Part shown: positions 15,534 to 26,927 of the stretch, in pieces
How the letters are laid out: the number at the start of each line of letters is the position of its first letter
Position numbering within the stretch: position 1 is the stretch's first letter
Assembly (NCBI GenBank): GCA_039180625.1
Contig: JBCDDE010000001.1
Span: 485,018 to 549,017, forward strand
DNA: 64,000 bases
From: Pseudomonadota bacterium
GTDB taxonomy: Bacteria; Pseudomonadota; Alphaproteobacteria; Caulobacterales; Parvularculaceae
Direction of reading: 5' to 3'
The notes under the pieces: generated by a model
Told to the model about the DNA's origin: nothing
What the model saw: the letters and a program-made list of their open reading frames with translations, nothing else
Database searches by the model: none
Made by a program: the position numbers and the translations under genes

Positions 15534-15694
15534 AGACGCGGCGCTATCGGTCAATGCTTCATTAGGCAAGTCATAAAAACTTATTTGTCGCGCAGTCGAT
15601 TTGTCGTTGACGAATGCGCCACACGCCCGCAAGTTATCTGTGGGCCACGCCTCCCCAACGGGGCGCGACCCATCTGCAAGGATGGGAGATATTG

Positions 15695-22667: not shown

Positions 22668-22671
22668 TTTA

Positions 22672-22863
22672 ATGTGCCGAGGGGCGTCCCGCCTGTCGCC
22701 AGTTGACGACGGTTCGTGCGACGCGCAACTCATGAATGCGTGCTATCGCAGCTACTTTAGCACAATTTGCGTGAGCAATGCGCGCCAGGGAACAAGGGCG
22801 TAAGGGACTGAGAAGAACCCTTTGAACCTGATCCGGATCATGCCGGCGTTAGGAACGGTGCAT
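22672..22863 (+). ncRNA. TPP riboswitch aptamer with a very long P3 insertion; no downstream gene
   Basis: P1 atgtgccg/cggtgcat; P2 agggg/ccctt; P3 gtccc (22686-90)/gggac (22804-08); UGAGA; ACCCUUUGAACCUGAUCCGGAUCAUGCCGGCGUUAGGAA core. Confidence 0.88.
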
Positions 22864-23012
22864 TGCTAATCTGCGAAGGTTAGCACGGGCCTATGGTCCA
22901 AGCAGAGCCAATTTCCTCGTCGCCGAATTCCAAAGGCTTGAGCAGCGGCGAGGAGACTGGTCACTTGTAGAATTACGTACTGTATCGTTTTAAGTTTTCA
23001 TATTTTTCCGTA

Positions 23013-23519
23013 TCAGAATGGATTTAACGTATATCCATCCTGCTGCAATAAAGCGTGTGCGGTCATTGCGGATAGCGCCATTTCCACTCCTGGCGCTAAG
23101 TCGGCGGTGTCGACGTCATAGTAAGCCGCGCTTTGACCGCAGACAATAATCCGGGTCTGCTGCGCGACAAGCGCTTCAACCAAGCTGAGGTTGGATTCTG
23201 CCTTCGCTGTGACATCCTTCACAGCTTTGCCGTGAATCACGACTGCGAGGTGAATATTTTCAGGATTGACGCCGGCTGCCGCATGCATATTGATAAACCG
23301 CGCTGCGGAAGTAAGCGTGCGATTGGCATCGCCTGAGTCTGCTTGCTGTCTTGTATCAAAACTTACATAGAATTTTGTCTCAGCCGGCACTGGCGTTGCG
23401 CCGTTAATTTCCGCGACTGGACCAAAGTCTTTAAATAAAGGACCGTTTTTAAACGCGTCTTCGCCTGCGATGGTCGCCGGCGCATAAAATAAAACTGCAG
23501 CAATCACCAAAATGCGCAT
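23013..23519 (-). CDS. DsrE/DsrF-like family protein (exported)
   Basis: Signal peptide; IHLAVVIHGKA, IIVCGQS, SAMTAHALLQQDGY; AGGAGA RBS. Confidence 0.82.
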   Translation of the reverse strand: MRILVIAAVLFYAPATIAGEDAFKNGPLFKDFGPVAEINGATPVPAETKFYVSFDTRQQADSGDANRTLTSAARFINMHAAAGVNPENIHLAVVIHGKAVKDVTAKAESNLSLVEALVAQQTRIIVCGQSAAYYDVDTADLAPGVEMALSAMTAHALLQQDGYTLNPF

Positions 23520-23564
23520 GTTGTCTCTCCTTAGTTTGAACGCGATCATAGGCCAACAATTCTA

Positions 23565-24329
23565 GTGAGGCCAAATTTGGGAGCTTCTGATTTGCGGACC
23601 TTAATTGCGTTTTTAATTTCTTTATTGAGCGCCGTAGACGCTAGCGCCGCCTGTGAAAAGCAAGCCCATTCCGGCAACGCGTATGTTGTGTGCCGATATG
23701 ATCCGCAAACAGCGGATGTTCGCTTTTTCCTTAATGACGCGGCCGGCGCTCCTTACCGGCATTTCAATCTCGTCAATAACGCGTTGGCCCGGAATGATGA
23801 AAAGCTGGTCTTCGCCATGAACGCCGGCATGTATCATAAGGATCGCTCGCCGGTGGGATATTACCGCGAAAATGATCGGGATATCGCGGCACTCAACACC
23901 AATGACGGGCCTGGCAATTTTCATCTGAAACCGAATGGCGTCTTTTATGTCGCGCCGGATGGTCGCGCCTTTGTCGAGGAAACAGGGACGTTTCTCAAAA
24001 TCCGGCAATCGCCGCCCAAATATGCAACTCAATCCGGTCCGATGCTCGTTATCGACGATCGCATACACCCGCGATTTTTACCGCAATCTGACTCTTTAAA
24101 GCGCCGGAACGGTGTCGGCGTCACGAAAACGGGCGAGGTTTTTTTCGTTATAACGGATAACCCTGTCCGGTTTTATGATTTTGCCGTATTTTTCCGGGAT
24201 GAGCTGAAAACGCCGAACGCACTCTATCTCGACGGAACCATCTCTCGCCTTTACGCGCCGGAACTCGGTCGCAATGATCCGGGCGCAGCCATGGGGCCGA
24301 TTGTTGGCGTCGTTGCGCACTTAGAGTAG
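23565..24329 (+). CDS. Phosphodiester glycosidase family protein (YigE/DUF2233-like)
   Basis: FAMNAGMYH, GNFHLKPNGVF, ATQSGPMLV, RNGVG, ALYLDGTIS. Confidence 0.85.
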   Translation: MRPNLGASDLRTLIAFLISLLSAVDASAACEKQAHSGNAYVVCRYDPQTADVRFFLNDAAGAPYRHFNLVNNALARNDEKLVFAMNAGMYHKDRSPVGYYRENDRDIAALNTNDGPGNFHLKPNGVFYVAPDGRAFVEETGTFLKIRQSPPKYATQSGPMLVIDDRIHPRFLPQSDSLKRRNGVGVTKTGEVFFVITDNPVRFYDFAVFFRDELKTPNALYLDGTISRLYAPELGRNDPGAAMGPIVGVVAHLE

Positions 24330-26751: not shown

Positions 26752-26753
26752 TT

Positions 26754-26873
26754 GAATTTCCGAGGGGCGCGGGACGCCGTCCGCTGAGATCCGGTAGAGC
26801 GCGAAGTCGCGCCAAAGGCAGCCGGAGCACCCTTTGAACCTGATCGGTTAAGACCGGCGTAGGGACGGAGTTC
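26754..26873 (+). ncRNA. TPP riboswitch (translational) upstream of rid-thiC
   Basis: AGGGG...GCUGAGA...ACCCUUUGAACCUGAUCGGUUAAGACCGGCGUAGGGA; downstream ggacg/cgtcc stem flanks the AAGGAG SD at 26914-26919. Confidence 0.93.
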
Positions 26874-26927
26874 AGTGCAAGCCCGCCTTCCAACGTCGGA
26901 CGAACCGAAGCCAAAGGAGCGTCCGTC

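Follow-up and report, generated by a model that had tools for sequence, protein, structure and literature searches.

A variant TPP riboswitch of Parvularculaceae with a conserved three-way-junction domain in its P3 arm

The locus and its TPP core

The window, by which we mean the whole 64,000-nucleotide stretch of DNA analysed, holds at positions 22670-22865 an RNA element that is followed by a reverse-strand DsrE/DsrF-like gene, a gene of the NAGPA family and a thiC-linked TPP riboswitch (Table 1). Upstream lies a YHS-domain (seleno)protein-family gene (NF041384; 22113-22607), which immediately precedes the element in many relatives as well and represents conserved synteny. A serC leader (RF00517, 57.4 bits) at 15638-15690 is consistent with an alphaproteobacterial genome. 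The genome carrying the window has only two TPP elements, the one at 22670-22865 and the thiC-linked one. At the gathering cut-off of the Rfam model RF00059 (54.3 bits) only the latter is reported; relaxed thresholds reveal the former at 49.9 bits (E 8e-9), in an alignment that spans the 3' two-thirds of the element. Twenty homologues scored against the same model reach 36-51.5 bits, all below the cut-off. These low scores are explained by the long insert in P3, a known weakness of the model (PMC11683625).

Judged by its conserved core, the element is a genuine TPP riboswitch with predicted ligand binding. Five helices, P1 to P5, with two sensor arms set on a three-way junction, are found both by RNAalifold on 30 homologues and by pair counts on 64; among these sequences, changes that are compensatory or lead to wobble pairs occur in P1, P2 and P5, and P3 and P4 are always paired. 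Pairing in P1 is retained across the 64 homologues with U-A, U-G, C-G and G-U variation, P2 carries a G-C to A-U compensatory change in four sequences, and the P3 strands GUCCC and GGGAC are invariant. The motifs CUGAGA, ACCUGAUC (the ACCUGAU strand) and GGCG are likewise invariant, and both pyrophosphate-sensor strands that characterise RF00059, ACCUGAU...GCG(U)AGG, are present. Loop L5 is near-invariant, reading GUCAUG in 53 of 68 copies, and differs from the Rfam consensus. The register that cmscan itself proposes, with the 5' strand at 22777-22790 inside the insertion (GCGCC-AGGG as P1/P2), was rejected: it leaves P3 unpaired, and its AGGG reads AGCG in one homologue subgroup. Two coding readings were also discarded, one of a 43-aa ORF at 22672-22803, whose ATG lies in P1 and is absent from relatives, and one of a 25-codon frame after the aptamer, in which relatives have interrupting stops.

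Table 1. Coordinates of the features at the locus, numbered from the first base of the window
Feature	Position	Strand	Description and basis
P1, 5' strand UAAUGUGCCG	22670-22679	+	Pairs with 22856-22865; constrained fold
P2, 5' strand AGGG	22680-22683	+	Pairs with CCCU 22818-22821
P3, 5' strand GUCCC	22686-22690	+	Pairs with GGGAC 22804-22808
P3 insertion, 113 nt	22691-22803	+	Three-way-junction domain; RNAalifold consensus, pair counts on 64 sequences
P3b GCC/GGC	22691-22693/22797-22799	+	Continues P3 across A-rich 3' bulge
Hairpin Ha	22694-22698/22707-22711	+	Borne by the three-way junction
Hc	22712-22715/22790-22793	+	Base of long arm
GUGCGA, near-invariant strand	22716-22721	+	Internal loop of long arm
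Hb	22722-22727/22779-22784	+	Long arm
Hb2	22729-22734/22770-22775	+	Long arm
Variable tip	22735-22769	+	Caps long arm
J3-2 CUGAGA	22808-22813	+	Pyrimidine-sensor strand; invariant in 64 homologues, aligned to RF00059 consensus
Pyrophosphate-sensor arm	22827-22853	+	RF00059 alignment, homologue pair counts
P4 CCUG/UAGG	22827-22830/22850-22853	+	Within pyrophosphate-sensor arm
P5 CCGG/CCGG	22833-22836/22843-22846	+	Within pyrophosphate-sensor arm
L5 AUCAUG	22837-22842	+	Within pyrophosphate-sensor arm
Extra U of CGUUAGG	22849	+	Extra base in 32 of 68 distinct homologues
P1, 3' strand CGGUGCAUUG	22856-22865	+	Pair counts on homologues, constrained fold
Expression-platform hairpin	22912-22956	+	UUUCCUCGUCGCCG (22912-22925) pairs with SD-like GAGGAG strand (22943-22956)
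DsrE/DsrF-like gene	23013-23549	-	Pfam PF02635, E 4e-13; convergent with the riboswitch, before the NAGPA gene
NAGPA-family gene (PF09992, formerly DUF2233)	23565-24329	+	Commonest direct downstream gene in relatives
Second TPP riboswitch, thiC-linked	26753-26882		Reads CGUAGG; 59.9 bits, above Rfam gathering cut-off

Structure and conservation of the P3 insertion

The consensus fold of the insertion obtained with RNAalifold (30 sequences) agrees with a structure refined by hand on 64 distinct sequences, and the same helices are recovered in single-sequence MFE folds of many homologues. Constrained to this consensus, the window copy folds at -70.2 kcal/mol, against -73.1 kcal/mol for the free MFE, and a covariance model built from the insert (R2) gives it 100.8 bits. 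Across homologues the insert measures 80-292 nt (median 115). In L107, the minimal form with 162 nt, the long arm is capped by a GAAA tetraloop alone, and in L108 the tip exceeds 200 nt.

The preliminary description of this DNA had noted the 113-nt separation of the P3 strands and three inverted repeats within it, all of which the sequence bears out, and had proposed a stem for each repeat. One of these, gtgcta/tagcac (22740-45/22758-63), is compatible with the consensus and belongs to the non-conserved tip. The other two had to be given up: agttg/caact would join the Ha loop to the 5' strand of Hb, which conflicts with covarying helices, and ttgc-GUGA-gcaa overlaps Hb2 and conflicts with helices that covary across the 64 homologues. 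The broader suggestion of the preliminary description, that the insertion is ordered rather than filler, holds: conservation and covariation were both found, though in helices different from those two stems. Among 64 distinct homologues, 93.7% of alignment cells pair. Of the 47 pairs, 17 have changed on both sides in a compensatory way, more than shuffles (8.2±1.5) or slid controls (2-5) yield; Ha, Hc and Hb each contribute such changes. Mean pairwise identity was measured on 30 homologues collected by similarity search, so that these figures carry no bias from a search pattern. It amounts to 0.70-0.76 in the insert core, with 22 invariant columns among the 30 sequences, and to 0.80-0.96 in the TPP core, 0.36 in the flanks and 0.19 in the tip of the long arm. 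On these values the constraint on the insert core is comparable to that on the binding core, and the comparative evidence marks the insertion as an ordered domain under selection, not a product of chance or random filler.

One may argue that the insertion is baggage which a permissive site tolerates, and that its apparent conservation reflects the close kinship of the carriers. P3 is after all known as a length-variable arm, with a mean of ~150 nt in fungi (PMC11683625), the tip of the insert varies widely, and unrelated long P3 inserts occur in thiC leaders of the same family (L159, L166). However, tip and flanks have diverged while the insert core has held in the very same sequences, compensatory substitutions maintain Ha, Hc and Hb, and the domain persists in at least six genera. 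We regard the baggage explanation as unlikely.

Two further aspects of the conserved core deserve mention. The unpaired junction bases GUGCGA, CCAGG and CAAU are strongly conserved, beyond what a passive scaffold would need; by-eye comparison of the conserved loops with the K-turn, the 11-nt tetraloop receptor and the T-loop yielded no fit. In addition, the 3' strand UGCGCGC (22779-22785) has two conserved 5' partners within 22716-22727, GUGCG and CGCGCA, whose helices are mutually exclusive and are both compatible with all 64 sequences. The helix of CGCGCA with UGCGCG shows G-C to A-U covariation in ten sequences, and that of GUGCG with CGCGC is 97% paired, with wobble changes only. The competition may reflect a conformational switch, or GC-rich repeats may have produced it by coincidence; as it stands in the alignment, it hints at a conformational choice that a purely structural reading of the domain leaves unexplained.

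Distribution and origin of the domain

The same element occurs in about 100 genomes of the marine family Parvularculaceae, including Marinicaulis, Hyphococcus, Amphiplicatus and MAGs. In a DNA search, 32 of 36 genomes of the same genus had the entire region together with its insertion. When 185,579 species genomes were scanned for exact matches to a 20-nt motif covering P1, P2, P3 and the start of the insert, 92 records were returned, ~80 of them from Parvularculaceae (Marinicaulis, Hyphococcus, Amphiplicatus, "Parvularcula sp." and MAGs); the few records from other phyla have no TPP 3' half and are as many as expected by chance. R1, a covariance model spanning the complete element, has matches in 142 of 151 family genomes, and the full-length form (at least 140 bits) is found in six genera. 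Three genera (g17, g18 and g27) give only short matches of ~85-120 nt, and in six of these that were inspected P3 is short or bears a small unrelated extension. The clearest insertion-less relative (L157), which precedes thiC, reads GGGGCGUCCC, a short loop and GGGGCUGAGA. Since such relatives share the P2-P3 sequence, the domain is one that has been inserted where a small P3 hairpin has its loop.

The insert-only model R2 matches 86 of the 151 family genomes, with exactly one copy in each, always within a TPP element; it detected no stand-alone or repeated copy in the 151 and no copy at all in 121 genomes from five other families of the same order. These distributions, together with the conserved fold, indicate that the TPP riboswitch class has in this element a genuine structural variant, which is conserved in, and specific to, Parvularculaceae.

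Several relatives depart from the common form. A 137-nt intermediate (L155:1557-1693, minus strand), directly upstream of thiC, keeps P3b and Ha with a short inner arm, and another copy (L055:3152-3373) keeps Ha around an unrelated interior; both retain the TPP core. The thiC riboswitches of another Parvularculaceae genus (L159:350-572 and L166:330-610) carry a different, AT-rich P3 insertion of ~130-190 nt. P3 thus seems, from these sequences, to be a recurrent insertion site in the family. A degenerate junction-type copy, with broken P2 and P5 strands, is found in one genome (L165:2002-2192, minus strand; genome G071), whose NAGPA gene lies elsewhere, behind a canonical TPP aptamer; this arrangement looks like replacement followed by decay.

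The extra U and the predicted ligand

The preliminary description also pointed out that the strand closing P4 reads CGUUAGG here and CGUAGG in the thiC riboswitch. This difference of one U is real, and cmscan treats the extra base after CG as a single insertion. The proposal that it might shift ligand preference finds little favour among the homologues. Between GCG and AGG, 32 of 68 distinct homologues have two bases (UU in 21, UG in five, CC in four, UA and CA in one each) and the other 36 have one, and both states share the same gene context; the extra U is, by these counts, a common variant within the clade. Moreover, the NAGPA orthologues of another genus (G071) and of another family (G045) are immediately preceded by canonical TPP aptamers, which score 64 and 63.5 bits. 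Because the extra base is common in the same context, the contact motifs are intact and canonical aptamers precede orthologous genes, a changed ligand is unlikely. We infer from the intact TPP-binding core that the ligand is most probably still TPP.

Expression platform and downstream genes

In all homologues a long hairpin lies ~50-110 nt past the aptamer, its 3' strand being the Shine-Dalgarno (SD)-like GAGGAG tract, and it shows compensatory changes between lineages. In eight species where the NAGPA gene comes straight after the switch, its ORF has an in-frame AUG or UUG 6-9 nt past the SD tract, a spacing that fits SD sequestration. Regulation would probably proceed through this conserved hairpin. 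A search for a helix that would counteract sequestration found no convincing candidate, and a scan for promoters and terminators near the element gave nothing above shuffle expectation.

No ORF follows the SD tract of the window copy; the next same-strand gene begins 608 nt beyond it, past a reverse-strand gene. To this extent the label "orphan" given to the aptamer in the preliminary description fits the locus. It fails on synteny, which points to the NAGPA-family gene as the usual target of the switch: a gene of this family lies downstream in ~40 loci, and the orphan look of the window copy arises because the reverse-strand DsrE-like gene separates the switch from it, an arrangement shared with five other species. 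In six species, then, the DsrE/DsrF-like gene converges on the riboswitch, and in three more it lies further downstream; it is usually divergent from the NAGPA gene, and transcripts reading through from the riboswitch would be antisense to the DsrE/DsrF-like gene. Other loci have downstream a secreted protein of unknown family, an outer-membrane beta-barrel protein, an M20 peptidase or the thiC leader, and thiC and an M20 peptidase gene are nearby in several loci.

Two kinds of TPP riboswitch accordingly precede the genes of NAGPA-family secreted proteins: in Parvularculaceae the P3-junction variant, and in G071 and G045 canonical aptamers (loci L183, 1360-2214, and L194, 1501-2324). In a third family the NAGPA gene is present in ~28 of 30 genomes, and the 12 loci scanned there showed no riboswitch. 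We know of no thiamine role for the NAGPA family, and our literature search found no report linking DUF2233/NAGPA to riboswitches. The recurrent association suggests that these proteins have an unrecognised thiamine-related role.

Proposed function of the domain and alternatives

Taken together, we think it probable, with some reserve, that the element is a functional, Parvularculaceae-specific variant of the TPP aptamer, in which a conserved peripheral three-way-junction domain has replaced the short loop of the P3 hairpin, and that it acts as an OFF switch by hiding the SD tract. For the domain itself we favour a peripheral structural role. In TPP riboswitches L5 contacts P3, and the distal part of P3 is dispensable for binding (PMC6414600). 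The inserted domain would be a tertiary-structure module. In known TPP structures L5 is received by P3, and the domain lies at the distal end of that helix, where the two would dock; it would probably stabilise or tune the way in which the two sensor arms fold and dock. With ligand bound, the platform hairpin would hide the Shine-Dalgarno tract and turn translation off.

A different possibility is that the insertion provides a second functional input, whether a small-molecule aptamer, a protein site or a two-state switch, that gates P3 formation and produces a two-signal response. Conservation of the bases in the junction and internal loop comes close to that of the TPP core, the two mutually exclusive helices (Hb, which uses CGCGCA, and the one that uses GUGCG instead) fit all sequences, and the associated genes (NAGPA family, outer-membrane beta-barrel, secreted proteins) are not classic thiamine genes, all of which would suit such an input. 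However, the insert matches no Rfam family (E ≤ 10 in the window, E ≤ 0.01 in 20 homologues), and the domain never occurs outside a TPP element, as a recognisable or independent second aptamer might. The shortened form in L155 and the replaced interior in L055 still hold a TPP core, and ordinary TPP aptamers control orthologous NAGPA genes elsewhere. Pairing between insert and expression platform, looked for in MFE folds of 22 homologues, was only sporadic and followed no common pattern. The preliminary description had raised a separate aptamer, a protein-binding site or a target-pairing region, and for none of these did we find an indication. A second input is improbable on this evidence, and the module is probably not a second sensor. 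We give somewhat less credence to its most elaborate form, a nested two-input riboswitch controlling secreted NAGPA-family proteins, in which the P3 junction, as a ligand or protein sensor or through the competition of GUGCG and CGCGCA for UGCGCGC, would independently decide whether P3 forms.

The weakest alternative, that the window copy is a decaying relic which has lost its downstream ORF and regulates nothing, could appeal to the distance to the next same-strand gene and to the clearly degenerate copy in another genome (L165), but we consider it very unlikely: the window copy does not look like a relic, since every invariant core position is intact and pair-preserving double changes have occurred both in P1 (U-A to G-U) and, relative to relatives, in the platform hairpin (A-U to G-C), and the five other species with the DsrE-like arrangement keep the whole cassette.

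Comparison with known systems and significance

The peripheral structural module that we favour can be set against several known systems. Like bacterial TPP riboswitches of the E. coli thiM/thiC type (RF00059), the element has P1-P5, CUGAGA, ACCUGAU...GGCG and a platform that would sequester the SD tract. It differs from them in that its P3 carries a conserved three-way-junction domain of 80-292 nt, whereas P3 of E. coli has ~18 nt (PMC11683625); it has no P3a, its L5 is GUCAUG and not the UUAAUA-like consensus, in about half of its copies the CG of the pyrophosphate strand is followed by one additional base, and most of the downstream genes are not classic thi genes. Fungi typically have long P3 arms, which are variable and defeat RF00059 (PMC11683625), and the variant resembles the long-P3 TPP riboswitches of fungi and plants in that its extension also defeats the model while the core binding motifs are kept. 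However, the P3 of eukaryotes varies in length, sequence and pairing (PMC6414600, PMC11683625), whereas here the branched core is invariant and only the tip varies, so that the insert does not conform to the eukaryote type; the mechanism would moreover be bacterial SD sequestration, and theirs is splicing control.

Conserved extra modules on a ligand-binding core are also familiar from the peripheral extensions of cobalamin riboswitches and from tandem glycine aptamers. The module described here is nested in the loop of an aptamer helix and does not lie beside the aptamer. Another thiamine-pathway variant, the HMP-PP riboswitch (thiS motif), was found through its departures from the TPP consensus and is reported to sense a precursor with a terminator-embedded aptamer (PMC6478431); the present element differs in keeping a complete TPP aptamer, including the pyrimidine-sensor arm. 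The literature that we searched contained no earlier description of a P3-junction TPP variant.

These observations have several implications. A clade of bacterial TPP riboswitches in some 100 genomes falls below the Rfam cut-off, and its regulons are invisible to standard annotation. A long P3 has been considered a eukaryotic trait that is variable in sequence, and here it has a conserved branched core. The conserved P3 domain makes the variant a naturally occurring test case for what a peripheral domain contributes to an aptamer that is already well understood. Finally, the repeated tie of variant and canonical TPP aptamers to secreted proteins of the NAGPA family (PF09992) provides a lead to a possible thiamine-related function in marine Caulobacterales.
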